A stretch of DNA of 64,000 bases from positions 676-64,675 of IMG/VR virus record IMGVR_UViG_3300048074_000027; one strand, written 5' to 3'. The position numbers were made by a program, and so were the translations under genes. This DNA is from a virus. Every line of letters begins with the position of its first letter. The first letter of the stretch is position 1. This document shows positions 1,480 through 62,374 of the stretch, piece by piece. The notes under the pieces are model-generated. The model did no database searches. It saw only the letters and a list, made by a program, of their open reading frames with translations, and was not told where the DNA came from.

Positions 1480-2244
1480 GGACTATTTCACTCTCCGCTG
1501 ATTTATTTTCAACGAAGCATTTATGACGCGGATATTTCTTGTGCGAGCGCGGCGTGTCAGGGTATTGACCACACGCGCAATACGGCTTCCAGCGCGGGCG
1601 TCCCGTGCCTCTGCGGTCAAGTTTCTCTTTCATTTTGGCAAGCTCTTTTTCAAGCTCTGCTTTGGTTGGCATCTATTTTTCTCCCTTGCTTGGTAGCGCG
1701 GCGGCAACAGCTTCCAGCACTTCAAGCGGCTGCGAACGCCAGTCAATTTCGCGCAATTTGTAAATTAGACGGGATCGGCGTTTTCTCGCGTTCACTTCCG
1801 CAATCCGCTCCGGTGTCGCCTCTTCAAGCCAGTCTCTGCGCAACGCGCTCCCGCTGCCGATTTCCCGGCCCGTACTCAGCCTGAATTTAGTGCGGCCTAC
1901 TGTTAGCTGCGTGACGGTCTTGCGAGTGACTTTTTCAATAGATCGAATTGAGCCAATACCGCTACCCGATACGATCACGTCATCACCAACCTGAAGTTTC
2001 CCTAGCCAATCTACGTTCATTGTTTTGCCTCCGTTTCTGGTTTCCAGCCAAGCGCCCGCGCCACAAGCTCGGCGGCAAGATTGGCCGCTTCTGCATTGTC
2101 CCTGCCTGTCGCGGAGCGCTTGACGTGGTTATTGCCGCTAGTTACGGCCAGTTCGCATACCTTGCCGTCGCCAAGCGGGTTAGGGTAAAAATGGGAATGG
2201 TTAAATCTTACGCCGTTGTTTTGTAGCCAGTCTCTTGCTTTCAT
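1466..2244 (-). CDS. Three small hypothetical early genes (1466..1672, 1673..2020, 2017..2244)
   Basis: Abutting or overlapping ORFs downstream of the 2251-2279 promoter. Confidence 0.6.
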
Positions 2245-6247: not shown

Positions 6248-6415
6248 TCGGAGTCCCGCCCGCAAGGATCGGAGTCCCGCCCGCAAGGAAGTGACTCGCT
6301 CTTAACCCCGATGGGGTATCGCTCGTTTCTACAGATTCCGCCTGCCCCTTCGGGTGTGCTTGAATGGGCGGGTGGCGAAAATAAATTGCACGCGAGTGCT
6401 CTTTTGTCTGTTAAT
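6248..6415 (+). repeat. Element A, copy 1 (21-bp tandem duplication at 6248-6289; ends in TTGCAC-18-GTTAAT promoter)
   Basis: Aligns by eye to 38374-38518 (minus) and 60908-60969 (plus). Confidence 0.85.
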
Positions 6416-6421
6416 TGAGAC

Positions 6422-6736
6422 ATGGAAAAAATCGCTCTTAAAACAAGTCGCATAGCAACTCCGATCTGGCGCTGTAGGTGCTGTGGCGCTGAAAACGATC
6501 AACGCGGTTGCGTTAAAGGCCCGCCGAATTGTTTCTGCGAAAAAGACAAAAGCCTACTAATGGAGCCTCTGCGCTGTACGTGGTGTGATAAGTGCTCAAC
6601 GCACTGCCGCTGCCATGACAGCCTTTGTAAGTGCAGGTTTCTTGAAGTGCGGTTCACGGCAAATGTGCCGCAAGGCCACGCGCCAAACTGTCAAAGCCGG
6701 AAACTGTTTCGGGAGCGCCTTCGCCATCCGGCGTAG
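6422..6736 (+). CDS. Cys-rich protein (14 Cys in 104 aa), cargo of A1-B1
   Basis: ATG 6 nt after GTTAAT; stop codon lies within element B1. Confidence 0.65.
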   Translation: MEKIALKTSRIATPIWRCRCCGAENDQRGCVKGPPNCFCEKDKSLLMEPLRCTWCDKCSTHCRCHDSLCKCRFLEVRFTANVPQGHAPNCQSRKLFRERLRHPA

Positions 6737-6875
6737 CCGAGAGCGGGGCGGCGGGCGGGCGGAAGAAACCGGAATGCCCTCGCGCACTCCATTCCGTCGG
6801 CTCGCTCAATCGCTCACACGACTGCACTGCCGTGCTAGGGGGTCGTCTCTTACCCCTACAGGGTGGCGTTCCTTC
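6722..6875 (+). repeat. Element B, copy 1
   Basis: First 19 nt identical to B2 (37778 downward); aligns to 62106-62240. Confidence 0.85.
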
Positions 6876-37620: not shown

Positions 37621-37778
37621 GAAGGAGTGCCGCCCCAGAGGGGCAAACGACGACCCCCCGCCCTCGGCAGTGAAGCAGTGCGGCGCGACTTAGCGACGCC
37701 TGCGGAATGGAGACGGGCGAGGGCTGCCTTTTGTCTTCCGCCCGCCCCGCTGCCCCGTTTCGGCTACGCCGGATGGCG
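37621..37778 (-). repeat. Element B, copy 2
   Basis: Starts immediately after the stop of 37779..37991; aligns to B1 and B3. Confidence 0.85.
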
Positions 37779-37991
37779 CTAAGTATTCAGCTTAAGCCAA
37801 CCTCGAAGAAACTGAATCTCTTTGGATTGAGCCTCAATTACCCTGCGAGCAAATTTATCGATCTCGCCAGAAAGCCCGGTTTTGATAACTTTTTCGGACA
37901 TCTCAATCGCCATTTGGTGATGCGGAATCATTTCCTTAGCGTACTTGATGTCATTCTTGATGTCGTACTGTGAAGATGAAGGCATTTCCAT
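37779..37991 (-). CDS. DUF305-like (ferritin-like) small protein
   Basis: MIPHHQMAIEM...IEAQSKEI motif. Confidence 0.75.
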   Translation of the reverse strand: MEMPSSSQYDIKNDIKYAKEMIPHHQMAIEMSEKVIKTGLSGEIDKFARRVIEAQSKEIQFLRGWLKLNT

Positions 37992-38028
37992 TTTATTTAT
38001 CCTTTTTGGTTCATTAGGCACTGTTGAT

Positions 38029-38367
38029 TTATAAGCTTGACGCGGAGCGAGAGCGCACGGCAAGTATTTGCTTGTGATATTCAAGATCGCGCTGCAATGA
38101 TTCGATCATCAGTTTTTGCTTTCCAATGATCTCATTGCCCCCATTGATTTGCCTTTGTTTTGAGGCTAGTTCAAGGGATACAGCGGAGTTGGCAGCGTCT
38201 AGCCCATTTGCGAAATGGCTAATCCGGCAATGGTGGCAATTGCAATCCTGCTCGCAAGCGTCCCACTGCGCGCACTTCGGAAATTTCTCTTCCTGCAAAT
38301 CGCGCAGGAAGTCTGCGGCTTCGCCAATTTCGAGATAGTCAGTGTTAGGTGAAAGATGGTTATTCAT
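38029..38367 (-). CDS. Hypothetical protein with Cys/His cluster and coiled coil
   Basis: ATG 6 nt after GTTAAT of element A2; CAQWDACEQDCNCHHC. Confidence 0.6.
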   Translation of the reverse strand: MNNHLSPNTDYLEIGEAADFLRDLQEEKFPKCAQWDACEQDCNCHHCRISHFANGLDAANSAVSLELASKQRQINGGNEIIGKQKLMIESLQRDLEYHKQILAVRSRSASSL

Positions 38368-38373
38368 AATGGC

Positions 38374-38518
38374 ATTAACGGACAAAAGGACGACCGTGTG
38401 CAACTTATTTTCGCAACCCGCCCACTTCAAGAAAACCCGAAGGGGCGGCGGAATCTGTAGAAACGAGCGGCACCCCAGAGGGGTGGTAAGCGAGTCACTC
38501 CTGGCGGGCGGAACTCCG
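38374..38518 (-). repeat. Element A, copy 2 (ends in TTGCAC-18-GTTAAT promoter)
   Basis: Aligns along its length to A1. Confidence 0.85.
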
Positions 38519-38660
38519 CTAAACCAAAAGCGCGACAGTCGTCCCTTTCGGAATAACTGCCGCGCTCATCTCGGTCACGATAGCCTTGTTGAGAAGTGGT
38601 GTCAGCCCATTGGGTTCATGATTCCCAAACTGCGCGCGCGGACTGACATAAATTAAGATA

Positions 38661-38732
38661 TTGCGGCGATGGGAATTGAACCCACTATTTCAAGGTTATG
38701 AGCCTTGCGACTTACCGGTCGTCCTCACCGCG
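38661..38732 (-). tRNA. tRNA with CAT anticodon, initiator (fMet)-like; no encoded CCA
   Basis: Cloverleaf: CAAGG-CT CAT AA-CCTTG, TTCAATT T-loop, C1:A72 mismatch, A11:U24. Confidence 0.8.
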
Positions 38733-57363: not shown

Positions 57364-58430
57364 TCATACGATAGACGACTCCCCTTGCTTCACCAAGCGA
57401 TGATCGGGCGTCAGCAAATAGCCAGTACAGCATACCCGCGCATCATCCTGATCTTGCGACCGCTGGCGACATTCGCCGCATTGATAGAGCTTTTGGATAT
57501 TCGACGCCTCGCCAGAGCATTCGCAATCCGCGCCCGCGTCGAAGAAGTCTGCTTTCAGTTGCCCTTTCGGGCTGCAAGTTAAACAGGTAAACCCGCTTTG
57601 AATAAACATCGCTTTCTCCCTCACGTAAACAGCCCCGCCTGCCTCAGCTCTTGCGCTTTCAGCCGCAGTACAATCGGCCTCCCTGGCTTCAGTGCGCGCC
57701 ACGCTTCGCCGCATTGCCCAGCACCAGCGCACAGCGGCCTGCACACGCGGCACAAGGCCATCTGGTCGCGGCAATCGCAGAAGTGCAGCGCGTCGGACGC
57801 GGGTAGACGGCGGCGCATTGGTCGCAGGCGGTCATGGATGTTTGTATCCTCTCAGTTGGGCGCGAATTTCTTTTTCGTCGTACTTCCAGCTTCCAAGCGG
57901 TTTCGCTTCGCCAGTTAGCCGTAAAAAACGCTTCACTCTTTGCGAAGATGGCTTGAGATACGTTCTGCCGCCAACCCAGATAGTCAGGCCAAAATCCTTC
58001 ACGTCTCGATATTCCCGCTTTAGTTCAAGGCTGGCCAGTTGATAGCTTGGCGTTTCCGTTAGATAGCGATCAACCAGCACTTCAGGACTAACCCGGCGGC
58101 GATCTTCCCGCACATCACCCGATCTGTTGACCGTCATCAGATACACCGTACAAAGCCCTGTTTTTGGCAACAAGCTCAGAGCTTCAAATCGTGAAAGCTT
58201 AATTGAATAGTTTTTCATCGTTCCCCCTCTTTCATCTTCGCCATCATCTCCCGCGCTTCCTTCGCCTTCGCCGCCCAGATGCGGGCTTGCCGCTGCTGGC
58301 GTGCGTCAGGAAATGTAGCGAAGGCGGCGGCAATAGTTTCGCGGCGGATGGCGATGCGACGGAGTTCTTTGATTTTTGCTTGGTTAGTCATCACGTCCTC
58401 AGTTTGAATGATTGAATCATTTGCTGCCAT
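57364..58430 (-). CDS. Hypothetical genes (57364..57609 Zn-finger, 57832..58218, 58215..58430)
   Basis: ORF track and RBS-like motifs. Confidence 0.5.
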
Positions 58431-59803
58431 TGCTCCGGCGTCCTATCGGCTTCATAAAACCACGCACGATCCGGCTTGAAGCCTACAAGCAAGCTGCCCA
58501 TTGGCCCATTGCGCTGCTTCAGGATTATCAACTCTGCTGAGTGTTGCGGCTCGGCTGTTGGATTGTCTATTTCGGGGCGATGAAGTCCGAATACCAGCGC
58601 GGCATCTTGTTCGATTTGGCCGGATTCTTTGAAGTCACGAAGCGATGGTTTATTGCCGTGCGCATCCCGGTTCAACTGCGCCAATGAAACGCCGCAAATA
58701 TCATTTTCCTTGAAAAGCTCCGTCATCCCTTTGCAAAACCGTGCAACCTCTTCCGCTCGCGTTCCTCTGCCTTTCTCGCCGTCGCCAAGCTGCAAATAGT
58801 CCGTGAAAACCATATCTGGCATCTGGCCTTCTGCCTGCTTAATCACCCGGATTGCCTGACGAATCTTTGCCACGGACAGTCCGCATCGGTCATCAAAATG
58901 AACGCGCATTTTAGCGACGATTTCTTCCGAATAATGCACGCGCCGCCATTCATCCGGCGAAAGGTTGCCGCGATGCAGTTCAAGCGCGTCAACATCGGCC
59001 AAGATTGCCACCATTCGCCGCATTAGCTGTTTTGCGGGCATTTCCATCGAAAACCAGACAATCAACGGCGGCTTGCCATCTTCGCGGACGTTCCACTTGC
59101 TCAAGCTCGCGTAAAGCGTAAGCGACAATCCAAACGCAGTCTTGCCAACGCCAGGACGCGCCCCAATGACTGTGTGAAACTTCCGCTCAAGGCCAAGCGT
59201 CATCCGGTCAATTCCGTGAAAGCCTGTCGAGAAGCCGACAACGGGCCGGTCAGAGTTCATCCGGCTTTCTACTTCCGCGATGTAATCTGAAAAAACTGCG
59301 CCAGCGCTTTGCCAGCTTGATTCGCCGTCATCGCACACGCCGGACAATTCGCGCTCAATCTCTGCAATCTGAAACTCTGTCGAGTCTTCATCGTCAAAAG
59401 CTCGCATCACAGCTTCGTAGCCGATGGAAATAAGCTTCCGAAGTTGCGCCTTCTGTCTCACGATTTTGACGTAAGCCTCTATCCGCGAGAAACGAGGCAC
59501 ACCATCAAACAAACTGGCGATATAGGCAGCGCCGCCGATGCGTTCAAGATCAAGCGTCCGGCGTAATTCTTCCTGAAGCGTGAGCGGGTCAATGCCAGTT
59601 TTCCAAATGCGTTTCATCGCGGCGAATATGATCTTATGCGACGGCGTGTAGAATTCATCTTCGCTCAGTAGCGCCGCCTGCTCCATTAGCGAATTGTCGA
59701 GAATAATACAGCCGAGTATCGTTCGCTCATTGTCCACGCTGGACGGCATCGGGCGGTCAAGAAACACATCGGAAAAGCGGGATACTTGTTTCAGAGTAGA
59801 CAT
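58391..59803 (-). CDS. dnaB: Replicative DNA helicase
   Basis: GARPGVGKT, FSMEM, DYLQL, LAQLNR, SGQIEQDA, KQRNGP. Confidence 0.95.
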   Translation of the reverse strand: MSTLKQVSRFSDVFLDRPMPSSVDNERTILGCIILDNSLMEQAALLSEDEFYTPSHKIIFAAMKRIWKTGIDPLTLQEELRRTLDLERIGGAAYIASLFDGVPRFSRIEAYVKIVRQKAQLRKLISIGYEAVMRAFDDEDSTEFQIAEIERELSGVCDDGESSWQSAGAVFSDYIAEVESRMNSDRPVVGFSTGFHGIDRMTLGLERKFHTVIGARPGVGKTAFGLSLTLYASLSKWNVREDGKPPLIVWFSMEMPAKQLMRRMVAILADVDALELHRGNLSPDEWRRVHYSEEIVAKMRVHFDDRCGLSVAKIRQAIRVIKQAEGQMPDMVFTDYLQLGDGEKGRGTRAEEVARFCKGMTELFKENDICGVSLAQLNRDAHGNKPSLRDFKESGQIEQDAALVFGLHRPEIDNPTAEPQHSAELIILKQRNGPMGSLLVGFKPDRAWFYEADRTPEQWQQMIQSFKLRT

Positions 59804-60726
59804 TATTCAACTCCCATAGCTCGGTGAAGGTTGGCAGGTAAAAGCGCTTTCTGGTTTTGAACGATGGTATTGTCCTTTGGCGTCGCATAGGCAATGAATC
59901 GTTCAACGTGTGAGGCATCGCGCAAGATTAAGTCTATTCCGTCGTAGACCGTCGCGGAATTGTTTTGCCCTTGGTGGTAGGCGGAATTTTTACAGCCATC
60001 AATCGCAATTTTTAGCCTGTCAACGCTAAAGCCCTCTTTGAGCCGGGCGATTATGATTCGCCTGCGCTTTGCGTCTAAAATTGACCGTGGATGGTTATGT
60101 TTGATTTTCCAATAGTCGAAAACTTCTGATACCTGAGTGCTGTGCTTGTCGGGTTTTAGTGGCTCCATTGGCAAACTCTCGCTTTCCGGTAAGTCGGGCG
60201 ATGGCTTGTTTGACATGTCTTCTTTAGTATTAAGAATACAAGTTAAAGAATAAGAGCTTTGCTGCAAACCGTTTTCCAAGTTGCCGACAACTTGCTCGCA
60301 AGTGGTTTTTGTATCTTGCTGTATCTGTTCAGGTTCCGCCTCGACTTGTTTTTGAGTCGCGCCGCTCTCGCCTGATTCCCCCTTCTGTTCAATGACTTCT
60401 GGTGGTTCAGGGAATACGGATTTCTCATCAGGATGCGGCGATTGATAGCGAATAAAGCTTGTAATGTGAATGTATTCGTTGCCGTCAACTTGGTAGAAAC
60501 TTATGAGCAACTTGGAAGCAAGTTGTTTTAGCCAAGTCGTTGCGTCTTCTACGGTTGCGTCATAGGGTAAAATTTCAGCCTTCAATCTTTTGGGGCGATG
60601 CTCTAAATTTCCGTTCCGATCCGCGAAACACCAAAGCCCTTGAAAGAATATCCGGCCAAGCGGGTCAATATCGGACAATGCCTCGTTTTTGAAGAAATTC
60701 GGCGAGAGATTGCGTTTGCGCGGCAT
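59803..60726 (-). CDS. Phage replication initiator / replisome organiser
   Basis: PNFFKNE...FFQGLWCFADRNG N-domain; VFDYWK C-domain; adjacent to DnaB. Confidence 0.8.
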   Translation of the reverse strand: MPRKRNLSPNFFKNEALSDIDPLGRIFFQGLWCFADRNGNLEHRPKRLKAEILPYDATVEDATTWLKQLASKLLISFYQVDGNEYIHITSFIRYQSPHPDEKSVFPEPPEVIEQKGESGESGATQKQVEAEPEQIQQDTKTTCEQVVGNLENGLQQSSYSLTCILNTKEDMSNKPSPDLPESESLPMEPLKPDKHSTQVSEVFDYWKIKHNHPRSILDAKRRRIIIARLKEGFSVDRLKIAIDGCKNSAYHQGQNNSATVYDGIDLILRDASHVERFIAYATPKDNTIVQNQKALLPANLHRAMGVE

Positions 60727-60728
60727 TC

Positions 60729-61061
60729 TTAATAACCCCCCACTTCTGACTCCATCAAGTTTTCTTCCTCCATCTTCTGACGACGGTTCCACTCTTCAAT
60801 TTCAGCCTGATGATAGTCTTCCGCGTCTTGTCCGTCTCGAACCGCGTCTTCTTCTTCACCGACTAAATCCTCGGTTTCAATTAAGCATTGAGGCAAGTCG
60901 TGACTGGATCGGAGTTCCGCCCGCCCAAGCGACTCGCTTTCAGCCCCTACAGGGCATCGCTCGTTTCTGCATTCGTTTTTCTTGCGTCCAGCACTCAATG
61001 GTTCGCCCTCAGTTAGATTGTAGATATTCTTTGGCTTCGTCGTACGCTTGAAGTAAGCCAT
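60729..61061 (-). CDS. Hypothetical acidic protein whose ORF runs through element A3
   Basis: ORF track; RBS plausible. Confidence 0.45.
   Translation of the reverse strand: MAYFKRTTKPKNIYNLTEGEPLSAGRKKNECRNERCPVGAESESLGRAELRSSHDLPQCLIETEDLVGEEEDAVRDGQDAEDYHQAEIEEWNRRQKMEEENLMESEVGGY
60908..60969 (+). repeat. Element A, copy 3 (core only, no promoter part)
   Basis: ATCGGAGTTCCGCCCGCC...GACTCGCT...GCCCCTACAGGGCATCGCTCGTTTCT. Confidence 0.8.
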
Positions 61062-62088
61062 TCTCGAAAGGCGCAGCTAGTCCGTTCAGGCTTTCGTTCA
61101 GCGCATCCTTTAGCTTATTGGGCAGCAAGTGGTAACAGCCACGGCACAGCGGTAGGCTTTTGACCTTTCGCTTACCACAGAAACAATTCCAAGAACCTAC
61201 CGCTTGTGCGACTTTTCGAGTGTGTATGACTAATTCATTGTGTGTCATAACCTAAAAGCTTCCTCGCCCTGCCGTGCGCGCACTCGCCCTTACCTACCCA
61301 CAAATGTTCTTGGCAATAACCGTGGTGGTCTAAGCGGCACGGATCGGAACTTACAATCTGACTCAGAATTGTTTTCAATTCGTTCGCCTCTTGCTGAAAG
61401 TGTACGGCGTTACCTGCCCAATGCGTTGCGCCTTCGCGTATCTTTTTCAGCTTTTTGATTTCGGCGATAGCTTCGGCAAATAAGTCTGCCTTCGGTTCGC
61501 CTGTAATATCAATCAGCATCCAGATAAGCGTATCGCGCTCGTATTTGGTCTGGTCTGGTTCGTTCGGAATTGACACCGCTTTTTCGATGCCAGCGCGTAG
61601 GAGCGCAAATACGTCATCACGTCGAATCAACTCTTCGCCGTCAGATGCGAAGTCTACTGTTGGCATTTCAGCTATGGCCTGCCGAGTGTTGACCACGCTG
61701 AAGCGTGCATTCCACCCCGCCTCAAAATACATAAAATCAAGCGGCCATCCGCACTCATCGGGGAACTGAATCCGTTCGTCGTTGATGTTGCATCCGGTTT
61801 TAATTGCCCACGCTTCAAGTAGTTCGGTTGGGTATTTACTACTCCGCTCTTCAGTTAGAAAATCGTTCATCGCATTGTCTCCACTGCTGGCAAAACGTGC
61901 TTCTTGAAATCTCCCACCGTCATCCAACTGCTGAGCGTGGAATAAACACCATCGCCAAGCGTACAGTTGCCGGAATTATCTTTCTGCACGCATAGCCAGA
62001 TAAATTGCGCATCTTTGGTGACACCAACGAAGCGAAAGCCTTGCTGGTTGGGAATATCTCTTGGTTCACGAATTATGCTCATAGCCAT
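61009..62088 (-). CDS. Three genes between A3 and B3 (61009..61248 Zn-finger, 61235..61870, 61867..62088)
   Basis: Overlapping ORFs, GGAG RBS. Confidence 0.6.
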
Positions 62089-62105
62089 TGCTCCTATACA
62101 GATAA

Positions 62106-62240
62106 CCGAAAAACGGGGCGGGCGGAAAACACCAGAAGGCCCTGGCCCGCTCCGGCTACAGCGGCTCGCTCAATCGCTCGCACGCCTTCTCCATCCGGGG
62201 CCGGGGGTCGTCACTTGCCCCTACAGGGCAGCGTTCCTTC
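62106..62240 (+). repeat. Element B, copy 3
   Basis: GGGGCGGGCGGAA...GGCTCGCTCAATCGCTC...GGGGGTCGTC...GCCCCTACAGGGCAGCGTTCCTTC. Confidence 0.85.
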
Positions 62241-62374
62241 AGCGCACATCCCGCCGAATCCGCTATCCGGGTCAATTTCTTCTTCGATCAATTCCGTGTC
62301 GCATTGGATGCAAGTCATACGTCTCCTTTCGTGCGCGTCTCCGCTGCCGGTGCGCGGCGGGCGTGGATGCGAGA

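Follow-up and report, generated by a model that had tools for sequence, protein, structure and literature searches.

The closest known systems to the element described here are the IS200/IS605-type elements that carry only tnpB (IS1341-like), those that carry iscB (ISC), and the gene-less PATE, with IS608, ISDra2, and ISGst1-6 as model members (10.1101/2023.03.14.532601; 10.1101/279083). Most tnpB and iscB elements depend on TnpA supplied in trans, and their cut sites are selected by base pairing with guide bases (10.1101/2023.03.14.532601; 10.1101/279083). Class 3 of the Y1 proteins has been described for Acidobacteria and Planctomycetes as an intermediate between IS and REPtron, and its members are uncharacterised (10.1101/279083; PMC8266576), while RAYTs read only a dinucleotide at the cut (PMC8266576). 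In IStrons, the left and right ends interact across the tnpB gene (10.1101/2023.11.20.567912).

The window, that is, the whole 64,000-nt stretch of DNA analysed here, belongs to a phage contig of 65 kb whose termini overlap over 139 bp, which suggests a complete contig, yet the record is classed as linear and 76% complete. The window contains three units in which an end A and an end B enclose cargo genes: cassette 1 (6269-6875, minus strand), cassette 2 (37621-38519, plus strand, reversed), and cassette 3 (60909-62240, minus strand). Cassette 3 is a whole non-autonomous element of 1332 bp, whose boundaries follow from ~60 family members, from filled/empty site pairs, and from the break of identity to the relative phage L360 at position 60908; the start at 60908 given in the preliminary description was corrected to 60909. 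The 14-mer by which that description recognized the two ends, A3 and B3, is exact at 60943-60956 and 62217-62230, 1274 bp apart, and occurs nowhere else in the window. Similarly, the 12-mer at 60915-60926 is the reverse complement of 62116-62127, as described, and constitutes the only perfect 12-bp inverted repeat within the element. A lack of significant alignment between A3/B3 and the other two copies had been named beforehand as grounds for refutation; the alignments have E values from 1e-9 to 1e-23. A3 indeed lacks the promoter and the second hairpin that are present in A1 and A2. In cassette 1, the A1 tip (~21 bp, arm included) is tandemly duplicated at 6248-6289, resulting in two possible right-end cut sites. 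An Rfam scan of the window gave no match at the three cassettes; its sole match was a tRNA with a CAT anticodon (38661-38732, minus strand), located 140 bp upstream of cassette 2.

The family was recruited by pattern scans of viral, metagenome, and genome collections combined with profile searches, which yielded 113 A matches, 96 B matches, and ~60 distinct single-cassette elements. These ~60 elements, which originate from phages and Blastocatellia genomes, have identical outer boundaries. The matches in the genome collection are confined to the class of a Blastocatellia assembly, and a phylum-wide search in 150 sampled genomes revealed nothing strong outside the Blastocatellia seed. Four loci (L235, L248, L249, and L250) come from assemblies that are titled Heliomicrobium or Heliobacteriaceae and are grouped in the Blastocatellia class; these titles are probably misleading. 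Several variants of the common architecture were observed. For instance, the element L234:886-1431 has a B end without most of the long stem-loop described below and retains the arm, the hairpin, and the G at +4; three loci (L271, L279, and L316) contain composites of the type A-cargo-B-cargo-B, in which a pair of left ends goes with a single right end; and the element L304:2150-2840 has a 28-bp imperfect palindrome on each flank. In the short elements L509 and L514 (G076), a fold resembling the left end occurs close to a 13-bp inverted arm; these elements possibly represent a distant branch.

The origin of the two ends was traced using a covariance model of B, which was run on 151 genomes of the class. 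The model matches the 5′ side of two tnpB genes in reverse orientation (108 and 51 bits), as well as the 3′ side of an iscB gene, which is the far end of the iscB element. At its far end, the best tnpB element has A in reverse, and the A model matches the right end of that element. Both ends were found in >20 copies of a TnpB clade with 50-88% identity to the protein of the best tnpB element; the arms of these copies are wholly different yet complementary, and the layout of the tip, an arm plus six bases, is identical. Thus, B reversed corresponds to the left end and A reversed to the right end, and, by analogy with the tnpB relatives, the working strand of cassette 3 is the minus strand. The relatives with homologous ends carry tnpB or iscB with an omega-RNA at the right end; cassette 3 itself has neither gene, and its scaffold is truncated. 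The region 60972-61008, which takes the place of the second hairpin of A1 and A2, is a decayed omega-RNA stem, and a functional guide RNA is therefore unlikely to be made from cassette 3. Gene-less minis of ~430 bp (L548, L559, L560, and L562) and of 140 bp (L546) were also observed; they are composed of a left end, a promoter-like spacer, and an apparently complete omega-RNA, and are possible guide donors for TnpB in trans. Cassette 3 is best read as a non-autonomous representative of an IS200/IS605-type clade found in Blastocatellia, with small phage genes in the place of tnpB; its shell derives from insertion sequences of Acidobacteria that carry TnpB.

Conservation in the family begins three bases ahead of the first purine run conserved in A and continues to 11 nt past the B hairpin. 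We identified three filled/empty pairs, all of them with zero duplication and no remnant of the element: a tandem repeat in L236, L289 compared with L255, and L360:4268-5089 (filled) compared with the window at the junction 2122/2121 (empty). In the latter case, the empty target site occupies positions 2118-2126 (minus strand), and the relative L360 has an 822-bp family member there. In another case, a helicase gene of L118 is split by an element, and its clean removal gives the same spacing as in 32 out of 34 helicase homologues. Variable target duplications at L136, L297, and L304 were considered and rejected as local coincidences or nested events that follow no rule. At L248:377-1138, an element lies antisense within a long ORF with reverse-transcriptase-like motifs, and taking it out leaves an uninterrupted frame.

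In 67 of 68 true ends, position +4 of the flank beyond B is G, a tally from which five extra regex matches without a B profile match were excluded; on the working strand this base is C at -4. The cassette targets show hardly any constraint at positions -1 to -3 and have T or G at -5. Beyond A, there is no base bias over 83 sites. In cassette 3, the target motif is located beside the left end at 62241-62245 (minus strand), where the plus-strand G at +4 (62244) represents the C at -4. The tnpB-bearing copies have a tighter target motif than the cassettes, and C at -4 was found in 23 of 24 tnpB/iscB elements, and T at -5 in 22. The right-end tips likewise have C at -4, echoing the target motif. 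These data show a mobile unit with fixed ends, whose insertion causes no duplication and requires little beyond a C four bases before the cut; as a whole unit, it lands almost anywhere.

The flanks of cassette 3 retain the traces of a more complex history. The closely related phage L360 lacks cassette 3 and is 97.5% identical to positions 58214-60908 of the window, with the break exactly at the element tip. The segment at 60729-60908 (minus strand), directly upstream of the replication initiator gene, holds the final 59 codons, now orphaned, of a T5orf172/MUG113 gene that the right end interrupts. This gene is intact in L360 (L360:11532-12206, 224 aa), and the four bases before the junction in that phage begin with C (C at -4), matching the target rule. 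On the opposite side, the left end cuts another small gene and leaves its first 26 codons with a good RBS (62241-62318, minus strand), which are not the natural start of the T5orf172 tail; this flank in the window has C at -4 too. The preliminary description placed A3 inside an ORF at 60729-61061 beside the replication initiator. The frame does exist and adjoins the initiator gene (59803-60726), but it is composite: its last 59 codons are the T5orf172/MUG113 tail and its first ~51 codons are element sequence. Since the T5orf172 gene is intact in L360 and the left-end flank is different, this ORF is chimeric and the two flanks come from two sites. We infer that two target sites were joined, either through a one-ended strand transfer or because two copies recombined with each other. 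The alternative that removal of cassette 3 restores one 85-aa gene was rejected; the fusion is in frame, yet the tail in L360 belongs to the T5orf172 gene. Pairs of loci that have one flank in common and break exactly at the element tip are frequent in the family, and such one-ended junctions go both ways, with the same left flank and a new right flank or the reverse. Assembly chimeras could account for some of the mosaic flanks in metagenome contigs. At L127:512-584, an element's A tip is joined to the outer half of another B in inverted orientation, which is a rearrangement junction at an exact element tip.

The shared 14-bp core was initially proposed as the crossover point for excision and integration, which corresponds to an integron- or att-like system, in which a site-specific recombinase acting at the hairpin core would release a 1274-bp circle and leave an A-core-B remnant. 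Junctions of the predicted circle type, B-core-A, do occur, and five distinct ones were found in tandem arrays of two to three cassettes (L246:1923-3583, L275:1796-4367 with two junctions, L299, and L308). The corresponding A-core-B site, however, was absent from all fetched loci and gave 0 matches in IMG/VR, and nothing of the element is left at the true empty sites. Identical cores at the two ends were found in 8 of 60 elements, slightly above the 3.9 expected by shuffling (p ~0.02, a value that ignores kinship), and the B3 core is the commonest one (31 of 60); in the other 52 elements, the two cores are unequal. Moreover, the switch points in the B-core-A hybrids lie before, inside, or after the hairpin and are spread over ~30 bases, and there is no integrase among the ORFs tested. 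Such scattered crossovers are expected of micro-homology recombination. The hybrid in L263 was formed via a third hairpin at the inner edge of B, showing that any hairpin copy can serve as crossover homology. The same cassettes were also observed in different order in the tandem arrays of different contigs. Thus, core crossover as the main route is largely refuted, an integron- or att-like system is very unlikely, and the common hairpin is a micro-homology that builds tandem cassette arrays and not the normal crossover.

The ends of cassette 3 combine several conserved folds. The right end A3 (60909-61008, minus strand) aligns to the right ends of tnpB elements and represents the 3′ part of a TnpB-type omega-RNA scaffold with a decayed 5′ stem; its fold has -27 kcal/mol, compared with -45 kcal/mol for a tnpB copy. 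From the cut inwards, it contains the terminal six bases past the right arm (60909-60914), which are target-like with C at -4 from the cut; the right-end pairing arm (60915-60926); and the subterminal hairpin (60943-60955) that the preliminary description regarded as the core, which is located on a stem with a 2x2 internal loop and covarying stem pairs. Hairpins resembling the latter flank host Y1 transposase genes. The geometry of an arm plus 6 nt is common to the cassettes, the tnpB elements, the iscB element, and the minis. The left end includes the complementary left-end pairing arm (62116-62127), the long stem-loop (62140-62207) with a large internal loop and a bulged base that never varies in the alignment, and the left-end subterminal hairpin (62217-62229), which is 11 nt from the cut, all on the minus strand. 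Both subterminal hairpins covary and stand in direct orientation; counted inwards, they lie 11 nt from the left end and ~34 nt from the right one. The long stem-loop is also conserved in the tnpB and iscB elements, and 10 of its 21 pairs are compensatory with 96.6% of the cells paired, as high as in 0 of 500 shuffles and above the slid controls. Among the 24 non-modal cassette arms, 12 are still perfectly paired, whereas 1.0 is expected and the maximum in 5000 shuffles was 5. Thus, the 12-bp arms covary across the family, which argues that the two ends pair. In a DNA-parameter fold of the whole cassette 3 as ssDNA, the arms pair with a probability of ~1.0 on either strand, so folding alone does not name the working strand; folding energies were not decisive for strand assignment, and wobble counts separated neither the two strands nor DNA from RNA. 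On visual inspection, the hairpin foot offers no guide tetranucleotide that would follow the IS608 pairing rule. The left end begins with a purine dinucleotide, which is a candidate that could read the two conserved target bases.

Long-range pairing that loops out the cargo, an invariant bulged base, and several insertions inside reading frames would also suit an RNA-level element, in which A and B fold as an IStron-like self-splicing intron or retro-element and the interrupted genes are repaired in the transcript. However, the ends have no Rfam ribozyme match even at E 1, the terminal signatures of group I and group II introns are absent, both orientations of the element occur within host operons, and removal of cassette 3 would fuse two unrelated genes. 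We regard this explanation as very unlikely. The DNA-level function favoured by the preliminary description was upheld, since the unit moves, its cargo is found in both orientations, and B-core-A junctions of the kind it predicted exist; this points to folded ssDNA and away from a terminator or riboswitch.

The cargo of cassette 3 comprises three ORFs, all on the minus strand. The ORF at 61009-61248 encodes a cysteine-rich protein of 79 aa that belongs to no family and is without any Pfam or PHROG match; its homologues (38-86% identity) occupy the same position in all seven other reverse-cargo elements. The ORF at 61235-61870 encodes a mosaic protein of 211 aa with weak matches to PHROGs of unknown function, and its parts recur in the elements L243, L257, L313, L259, and L267, in both orientations. 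The third ORF (61867-62088, 73 aa) has 65% identity to the cargo of the L259 element. In the family as a whole, the cargo amounts to 0.3-1.6 kb and consists of small phage genes, with DNA methylases and a PAPS-reductase-like gene among them; none of those seen encodes a mobility enzyme. Eight elements, including cassette 3, carry cargo that is reversed with respect to the A-to-B direction, and they have a common 3′ cargo ORF. The earlier claim of reverse cargo is correct for the three minus-strand ORFs; relative to the parent element, however, the cargo is not reversed, as cassette 3 cargo follows the tnpB direction, and the cargo of cassettes 1 and 2, the latter including a DUF305 gene, follows the iscB direction. 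The cargo is co-directional with the surrounding genes in most callable cases (39 of 50, and 3 of 3, by a rough ORF-length call), suggesting that both cargo polarities can survive in an operon.

No Y1 transposase, TnpB, or other mobility enzyme was found in this phage, and there is no tnpA inside any element or beside the examined left-end copies; reciprocally, no left ends were found beside tnpA at 58 loci. The host genomes encode many Y1 proteins, including one group that is flanked by REP-like repeats with hairpins matching the element ends. Hairpins of the element ends (≤1 mismatch) occur near 14 of 30 REP-type Y1 genes, compared with 3 of 30 other Y1 loci and 2 of 21 classical tnpB loci, an enrichment put at ~6-fold over the other Y1 loci and 16-fold over the classical tnpB loci. 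By motif and taxonomy, the criteria used for this assignment, the REP-type group resembles class 3. The REP-associated Y1 group of the Blastocatellia hosts is therefore the likeliest candidate enzyme, at slightly below even odds, on a circumstantial link. Another enzyme could act in trans on the same ends, such as an IS91-like (Y2) rolling-circle transposase, another HUH protein, or an unrecognised protein, with B as the start and A as the end. The one-sided target motif, the frequent one-ended junctions, which also suit rolling-circle behaviour, and the lack of a physically linked Y1 gene agree with such an enzyme; nevertheless, the gene-bearing relatives have IS605-type TnpB or IscB, which are normally moved by Y1 TnpA, and the end hairpins match the REP-type Y1 loci, making it improbable.

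Overall, the best explanation, to which we assign a probability of about 0.8, is a mobile IS200/IS605-derived cargo element that uses a Y1-type ssDNA route, with cassette 3 as a scar. By extension from IS608 and ISDra2, the minus strand would become single-stranded in replication and both hairpins would fold, the 12-bp arms would bring the element ends together, and a host-supplied Y1 HUH transposase would cut both at the left boundary and, on the other side, six bases beyond the right arm, releasing a single-stranded circle that would then be pasted after another (T/G)C-NNN. Cassette 3 would in addition be a rearrangement scar in which two different target sites are joined. A more speculative proposal, which we hold with rather little confidence, is that the elements are natural substrates of the REP-associated (class 3) Y1 proteins, that end pairing replaces most guide-target pairing and allows kilobase cargo to enter nearly anywhere, that Blastocatellia phages share the elements as a system for shuffling genes and building arrays, and that the minis may guide TnpB in trans. 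If confirmed, it would connect the REP-associated Y1 enzymes with genuine insertion sequences, a link described as missing (10.1101/279083), and would describe a scar-free mover of cargo. In mechanism, the family points to a single-strand transposon whose ends pair with each other and whose target requirement is about one base. It provides a concrete route, with junctions that can be checked, for the reshuffling of small accessory genes (methylases, PAPS-reductase-like genes, and DUFs) and of module boundaries among phages, and is a candidate gene-shuffling tool with a putative enzyme. The contribution of cassette 3 is the reverse-cargo subfamily and an exact junction verified against a relative.

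The comparison with known systems places the cassettes closest to the IS200/IS605 elements, with which they share subterminal hairpins in direct orientation at both ends, the lack of target duplication, and a motif that is found only 5′ of the left end and is echoed at the right-end tip (TAM/TEM, 10.1101/2023.03.14.532601). In addition, both ends are homologous in sequence to those of tnpB/iscB elements, and dependence on a transposase in trans is presumably shared. Unlike the IS200/IS605 elements, the cassettes bear unrelated phage genes in either orientation and form tandem arrays; their left end has, in addition, a ~70-nt covarying stem-loop and an arm of 10-12 bp, the latter pairing with the right end; and their target is reduced to about one base, whereas the known members specify four to five. 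Within the part of the literature covered, we found no publication on end-to-end pairing. The REPtrons (TnpA-REP/RAYT) have similarly short hairpins with 5-bp stems, several of them identical to the element-end hairpins; however, RAYTs cut immediately after the dinucleotide and the cassettes are cut three bases after the conserved C, and transposition of kilobase cargo is not reported for RAYTs in the publications consulted (10.1101/279083; PMC8266576). The IStrons, which combine a group I intron with IS605/IS607 (10.1101/2023.11.20.567912), also have structured ends that interact across the gene between them, whereas the cassettes have neither a group I core nor a terminal G and use both orientations.

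In contrast to IS607, in which a serine TnpA carries out the exchange inside a 2-bp G-containing core and the bases outside this core are target on the left and element on the right, the three bases at the A tip travel with the cassette, and the three bases beyond B come from the target. The Helitron2/IS91-type HUH elements insert without duplication, have subterminal inverted repeats that are asymmetric as well as a hairpin ~11 nt from one end, and capture genes. The cassettes share all four of these features; however, no Rep/helicase or Y2 transposase was seen, the cassette target lacks the four-base specificity that IS91/ISCR elements have next to oriIS, and the cassette ends are homologous to those of IS605-type elements.
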